Shown here piece after piece: positions 21,958-44,024 of a stretch of 64,000 nt of DNA. The position numbers and the translations under genes are program-made. A model generated the notes under the pieces. It was not told where the DNA came from and did no database searches. It saw nothing but the letters and a program-made list of their open reading frames with translations. How positions within the stretch are numbered: the first letter of the stretch is position 1; each line of letters starts with the position of its first letter. The stretch comes from a phage, in sequence record PX104379.1; one strand, 5' to 3'.

Positions 21958-22476
21958 TTAATAACCTCGGTCCTGACGAGCAAAGTTCTCGGCATTTTTC
22001 AGATAATAAAGTTTAAAGATTTCTTCTGCTGTAAGACCAAGACCCTGGAACATATTCAGAACGAAATGAAGAATATCAATCATTTCAAATTTAATTTCTA
22101 ACTGGTCTTGTGGAGACAAATCAGTAATCAGAGTTTCACGACGTTCACCATGCTGCGACTTCCAAGGTTTCCATACAGCAGATGCGTCTTTTTCACCATT
22201 ACTCATACCACCAAGAGAAGTCAGAAGTTCACGGAATTCATCGTCAATATAATCTTTCTGATTACGCAACCAATCAACAACTTCACCGGCAGTAGCCAAG
22301 TCATCAGGATGACGATTATATTCAGGTTTATCTTTAGCTAAACGAATCTGCAGAGATTTCTGCATGTCAAGCATTACCTGCAGCGGGTCTTTTTCATCAC
22401 CGAGAATATCCCAATATTCATTTTGAGCTTTATCAGCGCCTTCGATCAGTTGACTACATTCGTTGAAATGTGGCAT
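21958..22476 (-). CDS. 56: dCTPase/dCTP pyrophosphatase gp56
   Basis: 172 aa versus 171 aa for T4 gp56; MazG-like. Confidence 0.85.
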   Translation of the reverse strand: MPHFNECSQLIEGADKAQNEYWDILGDEKDPLQVMLDMQKSLQIRLAKDKPEYNRHPDDLATAGEVVDWLRNQKDYIDDEFRELLTSLGGMSNGEKDASAVWKPWKSQHGERRETLITDLSPQDQLEIKFEMIDILHFVLNMFQGLGLTAEEIFKLYYLKNAENFARQDRGY

Positions 22477-22477
22477 G

Positions 22478-23128
22478 TTATTTTTCCTTTCTTATGAAGT
22501 TTTCTATCATATGTCTATAGCAGATATTAGGATAACCTGCCTTGACAGCTATTTTATTAAATTTTGTGCGCTTAGGTCTATTATTATAAACCCATAATTC
22601 ATAAAGCGCATCATAACTATTCCATATTTCTCCTCGCCTAGGATTTGGTAAACCATATCGAGGTGAATTTTTACCGCTAAATCTTCCTTTTCGGGCTTTA
22701 CTCATATTAGCCTTGGCTTCATCGGATATAATTTTACCTTTATGAGCTAGACGCATTTTGGCTTTAGTTTCTTCTGGGGTCTTTTTGCCTTTAATCCATG
22801 ACGGCTTGCCATATCTAGGATTATTTTCACCCGAGAAAAGAACAGAGTTTTGGATTTTAAGGGTTTCTATTAATCTACTTGTTAATTTAACACCTTTATT
22901 ATATCGCATTAAATTTACAGCATAATGCAATCCTCTCACATCTGGATATATTTTAGTTAATAATCTATGAGCTATAAAATGCTCACGCGCAGTTAACTCA
23001 ACAAGATTGTTTTTGTCATCTGCTCCTCCTATACATCTAGGAATTATATGATGGCGTTCTTTATATCCGCCAAGATGCCGGCATTTAGCTTTTGTAATTA
23101 AAGCCGAGTAAATTTTTTGGTAATTCAC
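22478..23128 (-). CDS. free-standing HNH homing endonuclease (216 aa), GTG start
   Basis: HNH motif YKERHHIIPRCIGGADDKNNLVELTAREHFIAH; repeated NPRYG(K/L)P modules; GTG start with AAGGA RBS. Confidence 0.75.
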   Translation of the reverse strand: MNYQKIYSALITKAKCRHLGGYKERHHIIPRCIGGADDKNNLVELTAREHFIAHRLLTKIYPDVRGLHYAVNLMRYNKGVKLTSRLIETLKIQNSVLFSGENNPRYGKPSWIKGKKTPEETKAKMRLAHKGKIISDEAKANMSKARKGRFSGKNSPRYGLPNPRRGEIWNSYDALYELWVYNNRPKRTKFNKIAVKAGYPNICYRHMIENFIRKEK

Positions 23129-23198: not shown

Positions 23199-23399
23199 AT
23201 GGTACAAAAATTAATGGCACTTGTTAATGCCATAAAAGGTAATAAAAAACGTATAGCTTTTACTATTTCTGCTATGGTAGGAATTTTACTCTGGAACTTT
23301 ATTTTATCACCAATTGCAATTGCGCATGGTGTTAATATTCCAGTAGTTACTCTTGATACATTCGTAGATCTAGCATTTGCTTTAGTTGGGTTAATTTAA
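23199..23399 (+). CDS. plus-strand small membrane protein (66 aa), convergent with gene 61
   Basis: Strong SD AAGGAGG 7 nt before ATG; two hydrophobic segments; one of the only plus-strand ORFs that does not overlap another CDS. Confidence 0.5.
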   Translation: MVQKLMALVNAIKGNKKRIAFTISAMVGILLWNFILSPIAIAHGVNIPVVTLDTFVDLAFALVGLI

Positions 23400-24424
23400 A
23401 TCTTGGCATATTTAGATAGCCGCATTTTAGCCATTAACCCCTGGGCAATATTATTTTTCATATATTCCATAATTTGTTCAGGGGTTGCACCTTCCTTTCT
23501 AATCATATCATTGACATCTTTTGATTTCCAGGGAGATTTATCCCAAAACATAACCCTTTCTCCTGCATCAACTAATTTAGTCATTCGTTTGATAGTGTCA
23601 GGGTGACGAGGTTCATTATCTAAAACCCACACTCGTCTATCTTTAAATGGAACAATTTCTAGGTCTAATTGACCACCCGTAATAGCTATACCATTTTCAA
23701 TAAAAAGTGAATCTATAGGTCCTTCTAGAACATATACATCACCATCTTTAACTCGTTCGACTCCATATATTTTTGTTGCCTCAGGATAAGCTTTGATGGT
23801 GATATATTTTTGAGGAGCATCTTTCTTTAATGCACGTCCTTGAAAAGACTCAGCTTTTCCATTAGCATTATAAATTGGAATAACAAGACGAGGCTCAGAA
23901 ATTTCCTTTTTGTATGTTCCCGGTGCTATGCTATTAACTAATTTAGGCCATTCAGTTGTAAACCAAAGATATTTCCATTTATCCTTTGGAATACAACGAG
24001 CTTTTACATATTTTATAATTGGATGGTCTTCCGCCAGTTTATCTAATCTAACACATGACGGAAGAGATTTAATTATTTTCTTCTCAAGTTGTTTAGGAAG
24101 TTCTTTAGGTTTTTCTACTGGACGACTTTTACCTTTTTCTTTTCTTATTTCAAAGATATACTCACGATATAAATCAGGTTCAAACTCCTTTAAATATATT
24201 CCGATTGGTGCATGATAGTTACAGTTATAACAATGAATATTTCCTTCATTATTATCACCATAATACCATCCACGAGCTTTATTCTGGTCGGTTTTTGAAT
24301 CTCCACAAACAGGGCATCTAAACCGTAATTTAAAAGTTGAACTATTATTTACTTGTGTGAATTTAGGTAAATGAGCTAATGCACGATACGCAAACTCATT
24401 ATCAATCCAAGGTATTGATGACAT
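23396..24424 (-). CDS. 61: DNA primase gp61
   Basis: 342 aa as T4 gp61; N-terminal zinc-binding Cys cluster; Toprim-like centre. Confidence 0.9.
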   Translation of the reverse strand: MSSIPWIDNEFAYRALAHLPKFTQVNNSSTFKLRFRCPVCGDSKTDQNKARGWYYGDNNEGNIHCYNCNYHAPIGIYLKEFEPDLYREYIFEIRKEKGKSRPVEKPKELPKQLEKKIIKSLPSCVRLDKLAEDHPIIKYVKARCIPKDKWKYLWFTTEWPKLVNSIAPGTYKKEISEPRLVIPIYNANGKAESFQGRALKKDAPQKYITIKAYPEATKIYGVERVKDGDVYVLEGPIDSLFIENGIAITGGQLDLEIVPFKDRRVWVLDNEPRHPDTIKRMTKLVDAGERVMFWDKSPWKSKDVNDMIRKEGATPEQIMEYMKNNIAQGLMAKMRLSKYAKI

Positions 24425-25930: not shown

Positions 25931-26188
25931 TTATTTTAAAACTTCTGCGTAATCACATGTTACAAACTGTTTCTCTAGCTTGACGATTTTACGAAAGTAT
26001 CTTTTGCATTGGCGAATCTGCCGCTTCGTAGGGCGAACAGCAAACTTAATAAATTCCACTCGACCAAATGGAGGGCTTTCTTCTGATGGAATATCTAACA
26101 CCAATTCCCACGTATCTGCAATAAGTGCTTTGAATTGCGTATTTTTCCTGACATTATACGGAGTAGGTTTAAATAAAACAATATGCAT
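25931..26188 (-). CDS. hypothetical protein (85 aa)
   Basis: ORF track. Confidence 0.5.
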   Translation of the reverse strand: MHIVLFKPTPYNVRKNTQFKALIADTWELVLDIPSEESPPFGRVEFIKFAVRPTKRQIRQCKRYFRKIVKLEKQFVTCDYAEVLK

Positions 26189-26189
26189 A

Positions 26190-26372
26190 TTATCCTCGGC
26201 AATCTACTTCACATACTTTCTTGTCATCAATGAAAGCTTTAACTAATGCTTTATTAACTTCAGCATATTGAGTAGTAGCCCATTGAACGTCATCTTTCAT
26301 CATTGTGGTTTCTTTAGTAAACATGCTTTCATTCTTAAACCACCCCATAAAAACTACCTTTACCAATTCCAT
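26190..26372 (-). CDS. dmd: Dmd (antitoxin against RnlA/LsoA)
   Basis: 60 aa; sequence and position just upstream of gene 41 as T4 dmd. Confidence 0.8.
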   Translation of the reverse strand: MELVKVVFMGWFKNESMFTKETTMMKDDVQWATTQYAEVNKALVKAFIDDKKVCEVDCRG

Positions 26373-26401
26373 AACAATCTCCTCATTTAACCAACAAGAC
26401 T

Positions 26402-26431
26402 ACTATACCATAGTCTTGTCAGCTTGTAAAC
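26402..26431 (-). promoter_or_regulatory. T4-type early promoter for dmd with dyad symmetry
   Basis: Minus strand GTTTACAagctgacaagactatggTATAGTagtcttg. Confidence 0.6.
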
Positions 26432-27858
26432 TAAAATTTTAATTCATTTGCCAAAGCATCTAACTGAGCTCGAGTGGATTCATTTCTTTGATAGCGATTC
26501 TGCTCAGCCTGAATCTGTTGTGAACCTGCTACTTCACTCACTTCAGTTGGAGTAGAATCTTGTTCAATTTCTACCCATTTTTGATTTCCTTTTTGAACAC
26601 CCATCAAAAACTTATTCCACTTATTCTTATCACCATATCGTGATTTGATTTGCTTAATGAGTTGTTGTTCAGCAGCTGCTAGCTCCTCGGTTTCAATGAC
26701 CGCAAGCATAAAATCAGCTGTTGCTGGAAGACCAGCAGATTCTGCAATATCGCTCATGTTAACATCGGAAGAGTCCCAAGCTTGTTTACCAACCTGTGCT
26801 GCAGTCCAAAGAACAGTTTCGGTTTCAACAGCCAGAGCACGCAATTCCTCTGCGATAGCTTTAACAGTTGTGTAACTATTTTCTGAATAAACTCTAATGC
26901 GGCAAGATTTACAAATACCTAGATAGTCGACAATAATGATTGTTGGAACAAAATTCTTCTTGAGCTTTAATTCATTTAAAAGTGATCGAAATGTATTAGC
27001 GTCTGCTCCACCAGTAGGATATTGCTTAACGATTAAACGACCAAGGGTAGATTTCTCACGCCATTTTTCCATTTTTCCTTTATACTCAGCGTAAGAAATA
27101 TGTCCATCATCAATGTCATCAAGAGAAACATCAAGCATGTTAGCGTCAATACGCTTAGCACAGACTTCTTCTGCCATTTCCATGGAGATATAAAGAACGT
27201 TATGACCAAGCTGCAAATAATCTGCTGCTAATGAACAAAGTCCTAATGATTTACCAACGTTAACGCCAGCCATTAAAACGTTCAGTGTTCCAATTTCAGC
27301 TCCGCCTTTAGTAATTTTGTTTAGAATTCTGAGTTTAAATGGAACCTTACGAGCTTTATTCATATAAGATAGCCAACGCGCTTCATAGTCATCCATCCAA
27401 TCATGACCAACGTAGCTATCAAATGAAATTGATAATGCTTGGCGCATGATGTCAGGAATAGCACCTACATCTGGCATTTTCTTATTTCGTTTTTCCGGAG
27501 GAAGCTCAGCATTAGTTTGAATTTCGATTATTTTAGATGTAGCATTAAACATCGCCCTTTGCTGAACATATTTTTCTGTTTCTTTTACTAACCAGCTGTG
27601 GTCTTCTGGAGAATCAGCCAGTTTTGAAATAAGTGTTTTTACACCAGAATATTCTGTTTCAGTAAATGAACTATTTTCTAATGCAACATTTAACGCATTA
27701 ATAGATGGAACGCTATGATACTCATTAACATGAGATTTAATTAATTTGAATGTATTTTTAGCTGGACCACTTTCAAAATATTCTGAATCCATATATGGCC
27801 AAACTTTTGAAAAATAAGCTTGATCAAATATGAGATGAGAAAGAATAATTTCTACCAC
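26431..27858 (-). CDS. 41: replicative DNA helicase gp41 (DnaB-like)
   Basis: 475 aa as T4 gp41; Walker A GVNVGKS. Confidence 0.92.
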   Translation of the reverse strand: MVEIILSHLIFDQAYFSKVWPYMDSEYFESGPAKNTFKLIKSHVNEYHSVPSINALNVALENSSFTETEYSGVKTLISKLADSPEDHSWLVKETEKYVQQRAMFNATSKIIEIQTNAELPPEKRNKKMPDVGAIPDIMRQALSISFDSYVGHDWMDDYEARWLSYMNKARKVPFKLRILNKITKGGAEIGTLNVLMAGVNVGKSLGLCSLAADYLQLGHNVLYISMEMAEEVCAKRIDANMLDVSLDDIDDGHISYAEYKGKMEKWREKSTLGRLIVKQYPTGGADANTFRSLLNELKLKKNFVPTIIIVDYLGICKSCRIRVYSENSYTTVKAIAEELRALAVETETVLWTAAQVGKQAWDSSDVNMSDIAESAGLPATADFMLAVIETEELAAAEQQLIKQIKSRYGDKNKWNKFLMGVQKGNQKWVEIEQDSTPTEVSEVAGSQQIQAEQNRYQRNESTRAQLDALANELKF

Positions 27859-27867
27859 ACTTACTCC

Positions 27868-28230
27868 TTAAAAGAATTTAAATTTTTTCTTTGACCTTTT
27901 ATTAAATGCATCTTGCAGTTGCATTGTAATACATTTTTCTACATGAGGAGCTAACTCAGCTTTTCTTTCTTGGTCAAGAACAGCAAAGTCCATTACAACC
28001 TTTCCATCAACCCAATCCAGTTTAGTTACATACACTATATGTGTAGAACCATCTTCTAGTTTAATGACAATCTCCTGGATAACATTTTCCATAGCGGATT
28101 TAATTATCTTAAGAGACTCATTAAAAAGACGTTCTTTTCTTTCTTCTTCCCCCTCCAAAGAGGGGGATTCATCGATAATTTCTAGATCTAAATCTAAATC
28201 ATCTTTATTCATTAAATTCTTCCATATCAC
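27868..28230 (-). CDS. 40: gp40-like protein (120 aa)
   Basis: Size and position between 41 and uvsX. Confidence 0.6.
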   Translation of the reverse strand: MIWKNLMNKDDLDLDLEIIDESPSLEGEEERKERLFNESLKIIKSAMENVIQEIVIKLEDGSTHIVYVTKLDWVDGKVVMDFAVLDQERKAELAPHVEKCITMQLQDAFNKRSKKKFKFF

Positions 28231-29386
28231 TTAACTGCTCGAGGTCAGTTTCTAAATCAGCAGCTGATTTACTTTTACTTTCTGGAGATTTAAATTTTTC
28301 AACCTTTGAGTTAATCAATTCATCGACTTCAGCTTCAACAATTTCATTACTATCAATAGCACCTAACTGATAAGCACGTTTAATAGCATCTCGGAATGGT
28401 TGATGCTTAAATAAAGGACCCCAGAATGTAGTGCAGTTGGTATCTTTTGCACGCCAAGATTTTTCTTCGCGAATCATCTCGCCGGTTTCTTCATCAAGAA
28501 ATTCACGAGCATACCAGCCATTTTTAGGTTTTACCACGAATCCTAATTCTAGAGCCATATCTAACAATCCAGAATAAGGATCGATACCACCGTCAAATTT
28601 AACATCAATAAAGAATTTACTTTTTTCTTTAACGGTACGAGATTTTTCTACATTTAGAACAAATTGATACCCCTGAAGATCAGAACCATCTTTAATCTGA
28701 CGCTTACCGATAATGAATACAGTATCAGCCGAATACATTACGCCTGTACCACCTGTCATCACGGTTTTACTAAACATTTCAATTGTTTCAATTGTATGGT
28801 TAACCGCAACACATGGAATATTTTTAATGCTAAAGTAAGGAGTAACAATACGGAATAATGACTTCAGTGATTTAGCACGAGTCATATCTGCCACAGATTT
28901 TTCATTCAAGGCATCTTCAGTTTCTTTCTTAGAAGCCATATTACCGATTGAGTCGATGAATACAATAACTTTTTCACCGCGCTCAATAGCTTCAAGCTGA
29001 TTCACCATATCAATTTTTAGCTGTTCAACTGACTGAATCGGCGTATGAATTACTCGTTCCGGGTCAACTCCCATGGATCGCAAATAAGCTGGAGTAATAC
29101 CAAATTCGCTATCATAGAATAGACAAACCGCGTCAGGATATTTGTTCAAATATGCCGCAACCATAGTCAAAGACATATTTGATTTAAAGTGTTTAGAAGG
29201 CCCTGCGAAAATAGTTAAACCAGACTGCATGCCGCCATCAATCGCACCAGAAATAGCAATATTAAGCATTGGGATTTTTGTACGGATTACATCCTTTTCA
29301 TTAAAGAATTTAGATGTAGTCAGTTCAGCAGTCATTTTAGAAGTGGAAGCTTTAATCAAACGGGATTTTAAATCTGCAATAGACAT
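28205..29386 (-). CDS. uvsX: UvsX recombinase (RecA-like)
   Basis: 393 aa; RecA fold P-loop GPSKHFKS. Confidence 0.9.
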   Translation of the reverse strand: MSIADLKSRLIKASTSKMTAELTTSKFFNEKDVIRTKIPMLNIAISGAIDGGMQSGLTIFAGPSKHFKSNMSLTMVAAYLNKYPDAVCLFYDSEFGITPAYLRSMGVDPERVIHTPIQSVEQLKIDMVNQLEAIERGEKVIVFIDSIGNMASKKETEDALNEKSVADMTRAKSLKSLFRIVTPYFSIKNIPCVAVNHTIETIEMFSKTVMTGGTGVMYSADTVFIIGKRQIKDGSDLQGYQFVLNVEKSRTVKEKSKFFIDVKFDGGIDPYSGLLDMALELGFVVKPKNGWYAREFLDEETGEMIREEKSWRAKDTNCTTFWGPLFKHQPFRDAIKRAYQLGAIDSNEIVEAEVDELINSKVEKFKSPESKSKSAADLETDLEQLSDMEEFNE

Positions 29387-29463
29387 TCATTTTTTCCATA
29401 GGCATCATTATATTTTCCTCACTGGTTAAAGATAGAGTAATTATAACACAATAAATTTAGGCA

Positions 29464-30312
29464 TTAATCAACTGCTATCGGATGAATAGCATTAAACTTA
29501 TGAAATGCTTCTGATTTTTCTTTGCGCGAAACACACATGCGAAGAACCTTTAATGGCTCGTCTTCTTCACCCAACGATTTTCGTTTTTCAATATTAGAAG
29601 TTTTCCAACGAGCTTGCTCTGGAAACTCTCTATTGATTTGCTCAAGCGCTCTATTATGTTTAGAATTACTACGAATTGAACTACACCCGCCAGGAGCTTG
29701 CGCTTTACCTGATACAACCAGATATTTGAACAAGGCCAAATGCGGATAACCTTGATTAATTAAATTGAGAAATGCATACATATCTTCGCACAAATCAATT
29801 TTTCCATACCCAATTTGTTCTGTCGTAAGTTTTCCAAGGTCATACCATGTATTCGTGAATCCATATGAATTTTCACGATAATTACCCCAAGATGAAGTAA
29901 TTTTAAAAATAGGTAGACGAGCATGACCGTGATAATACCCGCAATCCATAGCATCTTCAACGTATTGAATCAATTCGTAGAATTGTTCACGGGTTAATTG
30001 ATTGACTTTATCTACACAGCGACGATCATCTCTTTTTCGCATTGAGCTCATACGAATCGTAGTATCATCGTCAATCATCCAGATTCGTTGACCTGCATAC
30101 ATATCAGTAATTGCTTTACGAGTACCGGCAATTCCGTTTACATCATCAGGAATAGTTACAATTTTAGCTCTAGACCCGTAAGCGTCATAATAAGCTTTTT
30201 CTTCGTGTTCACGCACTACAATATGGGGTTCATAATCAGTTGGAAACATATCAAGGGCAGAAACTGCCCCAACACGCTGATAGCTTGGAATTACGAATTG
30301 AATCATTTCCAC
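29464..30312 (-). CDS. putative GT-A glycosyltransferase at the beta-gt locus (282 aa), not T4 beta-gt
   Basis: FVIPSYQR and DxD-like MIDDDTT motifs; lies between uvsX and 42; T4 beta-gt is 351 aa with a different sequence. Confidence 0.55.
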   Translation of the reverse strand: MEMIQFVIPSYQRVGAVSALDMFPTDYEPHIVVREHEEKAYYDAYGSRAKIVTIPDDVNGIAGTRKAITDMYAGQRIWMIDDDTTIRMSSMRKRDDRRCVDKVNQLTREQFYELIQYVEDAMDCGYYHGHARLPIFKITSSWGNYRENSYGFTNTWYDLGKLTTEQIGYGKIDLCEDMYAFLNLINQGYPHLALFKYLVVSGKAQAPGGCSSIRSNSKHNRALEQINREFPEQARWKTSNIEKRKSLGEEDEPLKVLRMCVSRKEKSEAFHKFNAIHPIAVD

Positions 30313-31043
30313 TCACCGTTATAATCTTTTTTCACAATATGAGTTTCGCCAGTATTCCACCAATGATCAACCAAGTAAAAATGACGAGAATATACATGAA
30401 GACTTCCAACATTCCATATAATAGAACCTGCTTTATACTGACGAGTTGAATCGCCTGCATTCAAATCAGATACTAATTTATCTAATACGTATTTTTGCCA
30501 TGCATAATCATTACGGAATCCGAAGACCACGTCATTTGAACGCATGCTTACTACTGCATTGACTTTCTTATCACGAATCAGGTACTGTACTGTATTAGTA
30601 CACATGAAATCTGACATACCATCTTTATTGTAGTCAAATTGCATGGATGGACGAGTATAAATCATGATACCACGTCGAGAATCAGGATTTTGACCAAGTT
30701 CAGCTAAACACATATCATACTGGGCATAGTTATCTTCTGACCAAATAGCCCAACCATAATTCGAGTTAATTTCGCCTTTAGAAGATGCTACCTGCTGCCA
30801 AATCTTTGGTGTTTCACCTGGAATATCTTTAACAAACAAGCTCTTAGATTTATACCATTCAAGTTCGCGCTGAATGTATTCATCATTAAGAGCGCCAAAA
30901 ATAAACGGTTCATCTGCTACAAATGATGCGCCAATAATTTCAATAGTTTTAACACCGGTTTTATCAACTACGAAATCTTTTTCTTTTAATGCAAGCCCCA
31001 AATGAAGACGGATTTCTTCAACTGTCATAGAGTCACTAATCAT
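30303..31043 (-). CDS. 42: dCMP hydroxymethylase gp42
   Basis: 246 aa as T4 gp42; thymidylate-synthase-like fold. Confidence 0.9.
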   Translation of the reverse strand: MISDSMTVEEIRLHLGLALKEKDFVVDKTGVKTIEIIGASFVADEPFIFGALNDEYIQRELEWYKSKSLFVKDIPGETPKIWQQVASSKGEINSNYGWAIWSEDNYAQYDMCLAELGQNPDSRRGIMIYTRPSMQFDYNKDGMSDFMCTNTVQYLIRDKKVNAVVSMRSNDVVFGFRNDYAWQKYVLDKLVSDLNAGDSTRQYKAGSIIWNVGSLHVYSRHFYLVDHWWNTGETHIVKKDYNGEWK

Positions 31044-31050
31044 TTAAACC

Positions 31051-31200
31051 TCAATTGATACATTCATATTTAACTTGTAACAGTAATAAACTCCACCCTA
31101 AAATAATAGTTGGAATCATAAGAGGAACCGTTACGCTATAGTATATACTTATTATAATCATCAAGATTAAAAGCAACACTGTTATAATTTTGCTTTTCAT
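31051..31200 (-). CDS. small membrane protein (49 aa), start overlaps imm stop
   Basis: MKSKIITVLLLILMIIISIYYSVTVPLMIPTIILGWSLLLLQVKYECIN; not in the ORF track. Confidence 0.4.
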   Translation of the reverse strand: MKSKIITVLLLILMIIISIYYSVTVPLMIPTIILGWSLLLLQVKYECIN

Positions 31201-31448
31201 TCCTTCTCTCTGATGATAATTACTTGATTTTGTTGTGCAGACTTTTTAGTTTCACCCGCAATTGACCAAATAAATGTAATAAACCAACCAATAATTGACC
31301 AGTTAAACAGTAAAGATGTGAAAAAGATTCCTACTGTCGATTTTGACCCACGCATCAAGGCGATAAACCATGGAAGCATGTATATAATAATAGCCAACAC
31401 ACCTGAAACTAAAACCATAAAAATTGAACCTGCTACTAAAGTTTCCAT
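31197..31448 (-). CDS. imm: Imm superinfection immunity membrane protein
   Basis: 83 aa as T4 Imm; two TM helices. Confidence 0.75.
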   Translation of the reverse strand: METLVAGSIFMVLVSGVLAIIIYMLPWFIALMRGSKSTVGIFFTSLLFNWSIIGWFITFIWSIAGETKKSAQQNQVIIIREKE

Positions 31449-31455
31449 GTTTTCC

Positions 31456-31836
31456 TCACTTAGTCAAATTTTTTACGCATGAATTATAAGAATTCACTAC
31501 ATACTCCATCGGAGCATTTTTACCAGTACGCCATTGGTAATTATTAGCCCAATTAGCCCAAAGCTCGGCGCAGTAATTTTCAATTTTTTCTTCGCGTGTA
31601 ATTACATCAGAATTACGATATGCTTGAGCAGATTCATCTGGACGAATAGCTTCGTCAAAATTCGCCTGCATTTGTTCGACTGTTTGCTTTGGAGCTTCTT
31701 TATAACACTTGACATTAGGATTATAAAATTTGCTTGAACAGTTTACAATTTTTCCTACATCAGACTGATTTACTACCGGTCCTTGAGCTACACAACCAGT
31801 AAGACCTAATGCAATAACCAAAATAGCGATTTTCAT
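31456..31836 (-). CDS. putative lipoprotein (126 aa)
   Basis: Signal peptide with lipobox LTGC. Confidence 0.5.
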   Translation of the reverse strand: MKIAILVIALGLTGCVAQGPVVNQSDVGKIVNCSSKFYNPNVKCYKEAPKQTVEQMQANFDEAIRPDESAQAYRNSDVITREEKIENYCAELWANWANNYQWRTGKNAPMEYVVNSYNSCVKNLTK

Positions 31837-31848
31837 AATAATTTCCTC

Positions 31849-32100
31849 TTAAAACTTAACAAATAACTTTAAAGCATCTTCAGTTTTAATTCCTTTTCTT
31901 ACACCCATAACAGAAATTGGCTGTGACTGAAATTTTCCTTTACCATTATAAATTTCTAATCCAGTAACCATTCCATTTTGTTCTATAATACCGTAAGTAT
32001 TACCTTCATTTTCAAACTCTTTAACTTTAAAGAGTTTATTAGCTTTTTCTGCGTTAACAACTTTTAAATTTTGAATAAAATTAGTTTGAATATTTTTCAT
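31849..32100 (-). CDS. hypothetical protein (83 aa)
   Basis: ORF track; GGAGG RBS downstream of an early promoter. Confidence 0.5.
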   Translation of the reverse strand: MKNIQTNFIQNLKVVNAEKANKLFKVKEFENEGNTYGIIEQNGMVTGLEIYNGKGKFQSQPISVMGVRKGIKTEDALKLFVKF

Positions 32101-32128
32101 TTTGTGTTCCTCCGTAGTTGATAGTTGT

Positions 32129-32158
32129 ATAGTACCATGGAAGAACAGTCTTGTAAAC
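32129..32158 (-). promoter_or_regulatory. T4-type early promoter
   Basis: Minus strand GTTTACAagactgttcttccatggTACTAT. Confidence 0.6.
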
Positions 32159-32245
32159 AGTTTTGTGAAAATTTTTTAGGGAATTCTAAATGTCCAGAAT
32201 CATCTGTTTTTCATAAGTATAGATTTATATTACTTGTATGAAAAA

Positions 32246-32261
32246 GGGACCCGGAGGTCCC
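32246..32261 (-). terminator. GC hairpin
   Basis: gggacc-cgga-ggtccc. Confidence 0.5.
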
Positions 32262-32274
32262 TAGATTTATTCTA

Positions 32275-34971
32275 TCAGCCAAACAGGAAGTCTAACGAAG
32301 CTTTTTCTTCATAGTCCATACCAGCCGATTCACACATGCCTGCAAGCGGTTTAACAAACGATTTTTGGAACAAAGTTGAGTAGTCAATCCAAGACAGTAC
32401 GTCAGAACGAATTTCTTTTGGAAGTTCTGTACCCGACGGCCAAGCAATGCATTTGTCACCAAATGGATTTCCTTCACGCAATGGAAGAACCATTACTTTA
32501 TTTCCATCCAAAATTGGAGCTACACCTAAACCGCTAACAGCTCGACGATAAGTTAGCACCCCACGAATATGGAACGGACATTTAAATCCTGGCCAACCTT
32601 TATCATCATATTTCGCTATATCGTTCGCAGTTTTTACTTCAGCAATAACTTTATAGTCAAGTTGACGATATTCTTTCTCAAAGTTCTTGTAATATTCTTG
32701 AACAGACTCTTCACCTTCCTGAAGAATACGACGAATACTTTCTTCGAGAGCTTCTTGGACCGCTTTAGGCGTTGAACTCTGCTGAGTTTCCATACCCATG
32801 ATTTTTAGATGTGGTTCAGCAAAACGCTTATCTTCCATATCATAAACGTTCAGAGCATAACGCTTTTTCGCTTTCCAAAATCCGCCAACGCCCTTTGAAC
32901 CAAGTGGAGGGCAAGAAATAGCTTCACGGTCCATATGCATCAGATGCTCGCGGTTATTCATATAATCACATAACTCACGATATGCAACATCAATCATAGG
33001 TTCCATCTTTTTCTTACCGAACTGATTCATGAATTCAACTAAATCGTTCTGCTCTTTGAATCGGTCAAGACCAACTTTTTCAATAACTTTATCTACACAA
33101 ACATATACCGAATCAGTATCACCTGCTGCAATGAAATCTTCGCCATTAGTTCCGCATACTTTATTCAGATATTCATTAATTTTACGAGCAATCCACTGAA
33201 TACCAACTTGGCCGAAAATTGTGATAGCAGTAGCATTTCGCAAATCATAGTAACGGAAATGAATATTACCAAGAGCACCATAAAGACTGTTAATAAGAAT
33301 TTTACGGTTCAGCTGATTTGTGTTAGCAAGTGTAGCCGCTTTTTCACATTCTTCGATCAGACTATTAAGAACAGATTCAGTATAATTCGATAGTTCATTT
33401 AAGAAATCATCACTGAACTTAACATATCGTTCAACTTCAGGTTTAGTTGAACAAGACCCTGCGCCTTTCATAATAATCTTTTTAATAGCTTCGGCATTCA
33501 TTTCTTCAGCGAACATTTTCTTTTTCCAATCTTTACGCTGGAAAAATACTTTAGCGATTTCCTTTGGAATGATACCTTCTTGATGCTTATCGTACATCCA
33601 TCCATTCGGAGAACAAGAATATTCATCACTCGGTTTAGGAGCTGTTCCTGCGATATATTCATGAATTGGATGAACTTTAAACTGACCACGAATAGTCTCA
33701 GGACTAATGTTAACCTGACGAATAATGCTCGGATACAGAGACGTCAAGTCAAAACTCATAATATATCGACGAGCAATTGGTTTAGGTTCAAATACGAATG
33801 CACCCGGAAAACTCTGTTTAACGTGCGAACCTTGTTGAGGAATAACCTTATGTTCACCTTTCAATGAGTTAAAAATAATAGCATCCCAGGTTTTAATAGG
33901 ACTCATTACACCGGAAAAAGGCATTTTAGCGTAATAAGACATACTTAAAACTAGATCGATAAACCCGCGAATTTTATCAATTGCTTGAACTGATTCTACG
34001 TCAATGATGTTATAACTAATGTATCGTTGATGATTAGTCTCACGAAGTTTATTAATAGGACCGTCGTATGGTAATTTACCTTTTTTGGTTTCATGCTGAG
34101 CAACTGATTCCAAAGAGAATGACGGCAAATTAGTAAATGCGAATTTCTTATACAAATCTAAATAATCAAGAATAGATACGCCATCAATAGAATAAATTTC
34201 TTTGCTACCGTACATATTTTGGATAAGTTTAGATTTTACTCGACCGATTGGAGAGAAGCGTTTCATACTACGTTCACCGAGAACCATTTTAACGCGATTC
34301 ATGATATACGGAACGTCAAATCCCTCAATATTCCAACCAGTAAAAATAGCAGGTCGTTTCTGTTCCCAAAGATTAATATATTCCATGAGCATATCACGCT
34401 CATTATCGAATGGCATATAAATTACTCGGTCAAGAATTTCTTGAGGAACTTCATCACCACCTTCACAGTCAAGCTTAGCAGCTAACTTTGCATCCCATTT
34501 TGATACTGAACCGTACATTGAATTCAAAAGGTCGAAAACATAAAAACGATCATCAATTGAATCGTAATGAGTGATAGCATCAATTTCATATTCAGCTTTC
34601 ATTGGGTCAGGAAATTTATCACCAGTAACCTCAATGTCACAGTTAGCTACACGAACAAATTTTCGGTCATAAACAATTTCTGAACCGTATGTATCACTGA
34701 TATAAGCGAGTTTAAAATCGTTCATACCGAGAGCTTCGAGACCGATGTCTTCCATTCGTTTCATCCAATCTCGAGCATCTTTCATTGATGGAAATTTTTG
34801 AGGAGCGCAGTTTTTACCATAGATGTCTTTGTACTTTGACTCTTCCTTACAATGCCTAAACATAGTTGGAAGATATTCTACTTCACGAGTACGTTCCTTT
34901 CCATTTTCATCAATATAACGTTCAACAATATTATTTCCGACTGTTTCAATAGAGATATAAAATTCTTTCAT
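32275..34971 (-). CDS. 43: DNA polymerase gp43 (family B)
   Basis: 898 aa as T4 gp43. Confidence 0.95.
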   Translation of the reverse strand: MKEFYISIETVGNNIVERYIDENGKERTREVEYLPTMFRHCKEESKYKDIYGKNCAPQKFPSMKDARDWMKRMEDIGLEALGMNDFKLAYISDTYGSEIVYDRKFVRVANCDIEVTGDKFPDPMKAEYEIDAITHYDSIDDRFYVFDLLNSMYGSVSKWDAKLAAKLDCEGGDEVPQEILDRVIYMPFDNERDMLMEYINLWEQKRPAIFTGWNIEGFDVPYIMNRVKMVLGERSMKRFSPIGRVKSKLIQNMYGSKEIYSIDGVSILDYLDLYKKFAFTNLPSFSLESVAQHETKKGKLPYDGPINKLRETNHQRYISYNIIDVESVQAIDKIRGFIDLVLSMSYYAKMPFSGVMSPIKTWDAIIFNSLKGEHKVIPQQGSHVKQSFPGAFVFEPKPIARRYIMSFDLTSLYPSIIRQVNISPETIRGQFKVHPIHEYIAGTAPKPSDEYSCSPNGWMYDKHQEGIIPKEIAKVFFQRKDWKKKMFAEEMNAEAIKKIIMKGAGSCSTKPEVERYVKFSDDFLNELSNYTESVLNSLIEECEKAATLANTNQLNRKILINSLYGALGNIHFRYYDLRNATAITIFGQVGIQWIARKINEYLNKVCGTNGEDFIAAGDTDSVYVCVDKVIEKVGLDRFKEQNDLVEFMNQFGKKKMEPMIDVAYRELCDYMNNREHLMHMDREAISCPPLGSKGVGGFWKAKKRYALNVYDMEDKRFAEPHLKIMGMETQQSSTPKAVQEALEESIRRILQEGEESVQEYYKNFEKEYRQLDYKVIAEVKTANDIAKYDDKGWPGFKCPFHIRGVLTYRRAVSGLGVAPILDGNKVMVLPLREGNPFGDKCIAWPSGTELPKEIRSDVLSWIDYSTLFQKSFVKPLAGMCESAGMDYEEKASLDFLFG

Positions 34972-42805: not shown

Positions 42806-42823
42806 AAAGGGCCGAAGCCCTTT
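42806..42823 (-). terminator. GC hairpin (UUCG loop) after alpha-gt
   Basis: aaagggccgaagcccttt. Confidence 0.5.
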
Positions 42824-44024
42824 ATTTTGTAATAATGTCAAACTGTTCTTTAAAGCAGAAGCTTGAATCTTGATGCTGATACAAAAATTCATAAGCTTTT
42901 TCGCGTTCGCGGTCATAAAGAGTTCGGTCAGATGACAGTTCTTTAATACGTTCAAATGTTGATTCCATGTCATTTTCATCAAACCAAATGATACCGCTAT
43001 CATGCGAGGTCAAAGGAGTATTATCAACACGGAATTTTAAATTTTCGCCAGTAGATTTCCAAAATACCGGAATTGTTCCACATGCACCAAGCTCGAGATG
43101 AGTATATTCTAAAGAACGTTGTAGATATTTTTTATCCAACTTACTCAGCTGATAACCAAAACCGGATTTACTCATACGTTCAAGCATTTCGCTATTTACA
43201 TAACGGTCAAGAATTTGCGTTGGCAAATTAGGAGCAATTTTAATTTGGTCTACTTGATGAAGACGATAATACTCGTATGGAATTCCTTTTTCTTTAATAG
43301 GAATGAACGCTGGAGAACGTTCCAGACCTTCCATAATAGTACTTAGTCCTGCAGGTTTAAGATGTTTTTCATGAAAATCAAACATCTGATAAAAACCTTT
43401 CCATGTAGTCGTACGACCAATCCAACGGTTGATATTCATGTTAATTTCAGAAACATCTTTCCAGTAGGTTGACCGAACCTTCGCAATATCCATAGGAGGC
43501 TGAAAGTTATATACTGTCGGTGCTTCTTCAATATCATCAAACAGAGAAACTGTTTCAGGATACCATTCTTTCATCAGAACTTTATTAAAATCACCATTAT
43601 CAGAATGGCTAAAAATAACATCAGCTCGACGAACAGTTTCTTCTAATCCCAAATTTCGGCGCAAAGAAAGAGAAGAATGGTCATGTTGATAAACTACAAC
43701 ACGAACAGAAGGTTTAATGTTATCAATAATTTTTTTATAGTTATTAATAGTGTCTTCTTCAACCGAAGTAGCAGGAACTGAATTGATAATTAGAATATCA
43801 CAATCATTTACCAGCTTAAGTGTTTTATCATATTCTTTTGCCAATAAAACCGGAATTGAAAATGATTTATAATCATGCGCGCAATTACGAGTAAATGATT
43901 TATCTTTAGCATAAACCAAAGTTACTTCATGACCATTTTTAATAAACCAATCACGTTGCTCGAGTGAGAATTTTGTTACACCACAACCTTCAAGACCTCG
44001 AGCCATAAAAATACATACTTTCAT
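42822..44024 (-). CDS. a-gt: alpha-glucosyltransferase (hmC DNA)
   Basis: 400 aa as T4 alpha-gt; near-colinear with the T4 sequence as I recall it. Confidence 0.88.
   Translation of the reverse strand: MKVCIFMARGLEGCGVTKFSLEQRDWFIKNGHEVTLVYAKDKSFTRNCAHDYKSFSIPVLLAKEYDKTLKLVNDCDILIINSVPATSVEEDTINNYKKIIDNIKPSVRVVVYQHDHSSLSLRRNLGLEETVRRADVIFSHSDNGDFNKVLMKEWYPETVSLFDDIEEAPTVYNFQPPMDIAKVRSTYWKDVSEINMNINRWIGRTTTWKGFYQMFDFHEKHLKPAGLSTIMEGLERSPAFIPIKEKGIPYEYYRLHQVDQIKIAPNLPTQILDRYVNSEMLERMSKSGFGYQLSKLDKKYLQRSLEYTHLELGACGTIPVFWKSTGENLKFRVDNTPLTSHDSGIIWFDENDMESTFERIKELSSDRTLYDREREKAYEFLYQHQDSSFCFKEQFDIITK

Follow-up and report, generated by a model that had tools for sequence, protein, structure and literature searches.

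The gene between uvsX and gene 42 of a 64-kb phage window is very probably the ba-gt (ggt) gene of a T2/T6-like Tequatrovirus

Results

Identity of the gene located between uvsX and gene 42

The gene located between uvsX and gene 42 in the window (the whole stretch of phage DNA that was analysed, 64 kb) is, with high probability, ba-gt (ggt) from a Tequatrovirus of the T2/T6 kind, and its product would form gentiobiosyl residues. Its protein matched PHROG 842 ("beta-glucosyl-HMC-alpha-glucosyltransferase") with an E value of 1.1e-89 along residues 2-277, and Pfam PF20691 (TET-Associated Glycosyltransferase, TAGT) with 38.1 bits along positions 2-205 of the 205 of the profile, the curated gathering score of this family being 27.5 bits. 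Homologues were found by tblastn in 689 of 50,697 phage records, with a coverage of at least 80% in 685 of them, and hence the ORF is not the product of chance. Protein identity to the window enzyme was at least 95% in 472 of the 689 records, and at the DNA level at least 90% identity was observed in 475 phage records. Many of the matching records carry the annotation beta-glucosyl-HMC-alpha-glucosyltransferase, ggt or beta-alpha-glucosyltransferase. A search of a large protein database provided one 98%-identical cluster with 485 members and further relatives at 78%, about 65%, about 50% and, in one case, 28% identity; nine of the 11 matches were annotated with PF20691. By tblastn, the homologues from Klebsiella and Enterobacter phages showed about 65% identity.

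The individual enzymes were compared with that of the window, with the following substitutions:

FelixPlatter (Bas40), "hmC beta-alpha-glucosyltransferase ba-gt": none (280/280 identical)
TB37: V50I
EH2: V50I
NR1: D24N, V50I
T2: R11H, V50I, P251S (277/280 identical)
EL (L005:107-949, against window positions 29464-30306): M89I, R95K, C97R, V101I, A202S, Q203H
T6 record MH550421: Q10*, Y40N, V50I, D55G, R106H (5/280 codons)

The ggt locus of T6 was 97.9% identical to the window protein by tblastn. The preliminary description of this DNA had offered two readings, a second sugar transferase in the style of T2/T6 or some other enzyme of hmC modification. The former is borne out by these comparisons and by the PHROG and Pfam matches; the latter is not needed. 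The gene, its locus and its product are already known for T2, T6 and many recent isolates, and there is nothing new to biology in them. The T2 and T6 genes were reportedly cloned by Winkler & Rueger, in a Nucleic Acids Research paper of 1993. A full-text search of the literature with the long name of the enzyme returned only unrelated annotation mentions.

Coordinates and start codon

An uninterrupted ORF occupies positions 29464..30312 of the minus strand and comprises 282 codons if counted from a GTG at 30312. The gene is described as follows:

29464..30306, minus strand: ba-gt (ggt) gene, 843 nt/280 aa, stop codon included; Pfam TAGT, GT-A fold; beta-glucosyl-HMC-alpha-glucosyltransferase
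30303..30306, minus strand: ATGA overlap, in which the ba-gt ATG (30306-30304) lies over the TGA of gene 42 (30305-30303)

Judging from the sequence, translation almost certainly starts two codons downstream of the GTG, with the ATG at 30306, and the surroundings of this start read ...GGTGAGTGGAAATGATT... The GTG at 30312 was rejected as start codon, because the ATG matches the annotated CDS of the relatives: the 843-nt/280-aa form is the one annotated in T2, EL, TB37, NR1, EH2 and FelixPlatter, and the 4-nt overlap with gene 42 is likewise annotated in all six. The 282-aa protein previously proposed is thus confirmed as an ORF, its length being corrected to a likely 280 aa. The ATGA overlap of the ba-gt start with the stop of gene 42 suggests translational coupling of the two genes, so that the enzyme and dCMP hydroxymethylase, the product of gene 42, are probably produced jointly.

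The G+C content of the ba-gt region (35-38%) is unremarkable for the window. Inside the ba-gt coding sequence, at its 5' end (window positions 30254-30270, minus strand), there is a GC-rich hairpin of 7 bp, GGGGCAGTTTCTGCCCT, with a T-rich tail after it. This hairpin is the single terminator-like match between positions 29200 and 31300, as many as shuffled sequence gives, and it is probably due to chance. The promoter and terminator consensus scan of this same interval provided 11 promoter-like sites, versus 9.2 +/- 3.4 in the shuffles, and one terminator-like site versus 1.1. The ba-gt stop and the uvsX start are separated by 77 nt (29387-29463, minus strand), in which TGCCTAA is followed, after a gap of 11 nt, by TATAAT. 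By eye, this arrangement looks like a middle promoter of T4 (MotA-dependent) that would serve uvsX; it is absent from the list of the sigma-70 scan.

The locus in comparison with T4 and T6

The stretch around ba-gt is the T-even replication/recombination gene block, with the following features:

26431..27858: gp41, by translation and collinearity with the annotated T4 and T6 loci
27868..28230: gp40
28205..29386: uvsX, downstream of ba-gt; phrog_97, E 7e-110
29375..30320: cassette without T4 homology, 946 bp, essentially ba-gt and its flanks
30303..31043, minus strand: gene 42, dCMP hydroxymethylase, upstream of ba-gt; 97.1% identical to T4 gp42 over 245 aa
31197..31448: imm
31456..31836: imm.1, by position against the T6 annotation
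32275..34971: gp43, by translation and collinearity with the annotated T4 and T6 loci

The position of the gene between uvsX and 42, as initially described, is confirmed by the matches of both neighbours. When window positions 26000-32500 were compared by blastn with the T4 locus, homology (94-96%) ended at 29374 and restarted at 30321. The T4 equivalent of the 946-bp cassette is a 1941-bp segment with the homing endonuclease gene segA and b-gt. The statement that T4 carries its 351-aa beta-glucosyltransferase at this place and that the window protein is of a non-T4 kind was therefore correct: no similarity was found by blastp between the window ba-gt and T4 b-gt (best E 2.3), and no counterpart of T4 b-gt was detected by tblastn in the whole 64-kb window (best E 1.4). 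The closest relatives also have their beta-gt position in the uvsX-gene 42 interval. T6 was collinear with the window by blastn across positions 26467-31836 (gp41 to imm.1), with 96.8% nucleotide identity. A comparison over 24.5 kb showed the window to be a mosaic Tequatrovirus: several isolates match it at 96-97% identity, and none of those in the collection is identical to it.

A gene for an HNH-type homing endonuclease of 216 aa (phrog_655, E 1e-59) was observed elsewhere in the window, at positions 22478-23128 (minus strand), between gene 56 and gene 61 (primase, 23396..24424).

Fold and putative catalytic residues

Residues of ba-gt are numbered from the ATG at 30306, and conservation refers to an alignment of ten family members with 98% down to 32% identity to the window protein. 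Three elements were located:

30274..30297, minus strand: FVIPSYQR motif, residues 4-11; first beta-strand and loop of the GT-A nucleotide-sugar binding domain
30064..30072, minus strand: DDD (D79-D81) within MIDDDTT (residues 77-83); DxD-type motif
29782..29787, minus strand: E174-D175, where the catalytic base of an inverting GT2-like enzyme may lie

The invariant positions of the alignment include I6, P7, S8, Y9, R11, D79, D80, D81, D175, G206, G207, S209 and R212, with E174 nearly invariant, and the window protein keeps every invariant residue. The AlphaFold2 model built on this alignment was of moderate quality (pTM 0.71, mean pLDDT 69): the N-terminal 80 residues were confident (84-95), and residues 126-151 and the C-terminus were below 50. 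In the model, the FVIPSYQR region forms a strand at E3-7 (pLDDT about 86) and the three aspartates come just after strand E74-77, in agreement with GT-A enzymes, whose DxD follows the fourth strand. The protein consists of a single Rossmann-like nucleotide-sugar domain with GT-A topology. This topology and the invariant DDD agree with the GT-A-like character that had been attributed to the protein on account of FVIPSYQR and MIDDDTT, both of which are present.

Inverting enzymes of the GT2-like kind work with a metal held by the DxD and with a base, Asp or Glu, located about 90-100 residues after the DxD. In ba-gt, D175 lies 94 residues past D81. By analogy with the GT-A family, the DDD is expected to hold a divalent metal and the UDP diphosphate, and the general GT2 mechanism points to E174/D175 as the likely catalytic base. 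The following enzymes were listed against the ba-gt fold, each with its value:

Cellulose synthase BcsA: 10.2
WrtF: 9.7
RmlT: 9.3
PcManGT: 9.1
Beta-1,3-glucosyltransferase AvpGT: 9.0
GlfT2: 8.9
TarP: 8.6

This result agrees, by an independent route, with the published position of the T6 enzyme in GT-A as sister to GT2 (PMC13216743). By sequence, ba-gt has no relative of solved structure: the search of the PDB with the single protein gave chance matches only (E > 1), and the best match of the 10-sequence profile was the GT2 glucosyltransferase 9jma, which was non-significant (E 0.23). In this weak match FVIPSYQR aligns to IPTYNR and the DDD of ba-gt to the DDD of 9jma.

Pathway partners and proposed mechanism

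The enzymes that make the acceptor of ba-gt (the products of gene 56, gene 42 and alpha-gt) are all encoded within the window; the presence of alpha-gt elsewhere in it had been noted previously and is confirmed here. Apart from gene 42, they are:

21958..22476, minus strand: gene 56, dCTPase/dUTPase; phrog_173 nucleoside triphosphate pyrophosphohydrolase, E 2e-46
42822..44024, minus strand: alpha-glucosyltransferase (a-gt), 400 aa; phrog_2888, E 9e-223, full length; annotated as alpha-glucosyltransferase in the closest genomes

In the proposed pathway, the gene 56 enzyme would remove dCTP, so that only hm-dCTP is incorporated, and gene 42 would supply hm-dCMP; together they would lead to the replacement of cytosine by hydroxymethylcytosine in the phage DNA. 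Alpha-gt would then place an alpha-linked glucose on the hydroxymethyl group, giving alpha-glucosyl-hmC, and ba-gt, using UDP-glucose, would add a second glucose onto the first one by a beta-1,6 linkage, giving alpha-gentiobiosyl-hmC. The formation of a beta-linked product from UDP-alpha-glucose implies inversion of configuration; the enzyme would therefore be an inverting one, which fits a GT2-like GT-A protein in which metal and UDP presumably bind to the DDD at residues 79-81 and E174/D175 would probably provide the base. This activity is known from the literature for the T2/T6 enzyme and is predicted for the enzyme of the window. The activity of the T2/T6 enzyme and the gentiobiose of T6 DNA are attributed to Lehman & Pratt 1960, Kornberg et al. 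1961 and Kuno & Lehman 1962, as cited in PMC13216743.

Predicted DNA chemistry and the T2, T6 and EL alleles

One important question is which sugar pattern this gene would confer. Published LC-MS measurements of virion nucleosides from the Durham Tequatrovirus collection cover phages with exactly the gene arrangement of the window (PMC13390438). TB37, NR1, EH2 and four others contained about 1/3 5-hmdC, about 2/3 alpha-5-gentiobiosyl-mdC, traces of alpha-5-glc-mdC and no beta form, and in EL, BGP and Geo the ratio was 1:2:2 (PMC13390438). Of the two Durham groups, one had a gentiobiosyl fraction of about 40% and the other of about 67%, and the values quoted for T2 and T6 are 5% and 72%, respectively (PMC13390438). 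By analogy, the DNA of the window phage is predicted to be T6-like, free hmC making up about one third and gentiobiosyl-hmC about two thirds, in the absence of beta-glucosyl-hmC, the exact ratio being extrapolated from the relatives. Since near-identical enzymes go with differing gentiobiosyl fractions, the exact pattern is not readable from the gene alone.

The T2 allele (AP018813, L003:7283-8125) carries R11H, at an invariant arginine of the alignment, and P251S, at a nearly invariant proline. Both changes are shared by all eight T2 accessions listed, whose ba-gt sequences are 100% identical to one another, and they might be causes of the low gentiobiosylation of T2; the window enzyme, unlike that of T2, keeps R11 and P251. 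In EL, which belongs to the lower-gentiobiosyl Durham group (1:2:2), R95K affects the nearly invariant R95, whereas TB37 and EH2, with V50I only, reach about 2/3. A broader and rather doubtful proposal is that the two T2 changes and the six EL substitutions set the degree of gentiobiosylation (5% in T2, about 40% in EL and about 67-72% in TB37, EH2 and T6). If this were true, the sixty-year-old quantitative difference between T2 and T6 DNA would be explained, and the window allele, which has the 'consensus' form, would predict a high-gentiobiose phenotype; the explanation concerns the relatives and is not a new feature of the window.

In the T6 record MH550421 (L001:3007-3849) codon 10 of ba-gt is TAG, whereas the window has CAG (30277-30279). 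The ggt CDS of this record is annotated from a downstream ATG, as a protein of 261 aa without the first beta-strand (FVIPSY). The TAG fits poorly with T6 as the classic high-gentiobiose phage; it could be a stock-specific amber mutation, reflect growth on a suppressor host, or be a sequencing error.

The low fraction in T2 (about 5% gentiobiosyl-hmC in spite of its ba-gt) and the TAG of the T6 record indicate that the presence of the gene does not guarantee the phenotype. The enzyme of the window might thus be inactive or weak, in the manner of T2, in which case the DNA would contain essentially alpha-glucosyl-hmC and hmC, with the second sugar as a minor component. We consider this very improbable, because the ORF is intact, all the invariant residues (R11 included) and also P251 are kept, and phages with about 2/3 gentiobiosyl-hmC have an identical or nearly identical enzyme.

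Even more remote is that this TAGT-family DNA glycosyltransferase uses another sugar or acceptor, either as an arabinosyltransferase of the RB69/Bas46 kind or by acting directly on hmC. The TAGT family is broad, with distant members that coexist with a beta-GT or occur without any alpha- or beta-GT, so that membership alone leaves the specificity unfixed (PMC13216743), and the Klebsiella and Enterobacter homologues retain just about 65% identity; however, the 99-100% identity to the T2 and Bas40 enzymes, and the single residue of difference from TB37 and EH2, whose gentiobiosyl-hmC has been measured, make a changed specificity very unlikely. The comparison with RB69-type arabinosyltransferases, recommended in the preliminary description, gave no similarity of ba-gt to gp3 or gp46:47 (best E 1.3 for RB69p047 and 4.7 for RB69p003), and no homologue of the arabinosylation-cluster proteins gp3, gp46 and gp47 was found in the 64-kb window; an arabinosyltransferase identity was rejected on these grounds. 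In addition, gene 42 of the window is of the hmC type (97% to T4), with 25% identity to RB69p048, which is of the 5-hydroxy-dCMP synthase type.

A gentiobiosyl-forming ba-gt would decide the sugar pattern of the phage, giving gentiobiosyl-hmC plus free hmC versus the mixture of alpha- and beta-monoglucosyl-hmC of T4. The sugar pattern affects which defences attack the phage (McrBC, GmrSD/BrxU, Brig1-type glycosylases, CRISPR and type II enzymes), and the predicted gentiobiosyl pattern would determine how sensitive the phage is to defences specific for glucose, such as Brig1 and GmrSD. The assignment is useful for annotating the phage and predicting its behaviour, e.g. in host-range work for phage therapy.

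Comparison with known systems

The closest system is that of T2 and T6, which have in common with the window the locus, the 280-aa length and the partner genes (alpha-gt, 42 and 56), with no difference of substance. The pair of alpha-gt and ba-gt is the common Tequatrovirus arrangement, and the gene is very frequent in T4-like coliphages. The alpha-gt plus beta-gt pair of T4 is rare: most GT-encoding phages by far have an alpha-GT or a beta-GT plus a TAGT, the T4-type pair being present in 6 of 753 genomes, and the biological role of TAGTs is described as 'yet-to-be defined' (PMC13216743).

T4 b-gt shares with ba-gt the genomic position and a similar task, the UDP-glucose-dependent, post-replicative transfer of a sugar to hmC DNA by a beta linkage. 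Its acceptor is the hydroxymethyl group, whereas that of ba-gt would be the glucose of alpha-glucosyl-hmC, and T4 carries segA in the uvsX-42 interval, which the window lacks. T4 b-gt belongs to the CAZy GT63/GT72 group. Its fold is GT-B (PMC13216743), in contrast to the GT-A fold of the window ba-gt.

The arabinosyltransferases of RB69 also decorate a modified cytosine with sugar in the DNA of a T-even relative, and gp46:47 likewise adjoins uvsX and a gene 42 homologue. The structural matches of gp3 and gp46:47 are GT-B enzymes, and their acceptor is 5-hydroxycytosine (PMC13326640). Finally, the cellular inverting glycosyltransferases of the GT2 family (BcsA, RmlT, the AvpGT/PglI-like beta-1,3-glucosyltransferase and TarP) have 6-17% identity to ba-gt; their acceptors are lipids, polysaccharides or proteins, whereas the predicted acceptor of ba-gt is glucosylated DNA.
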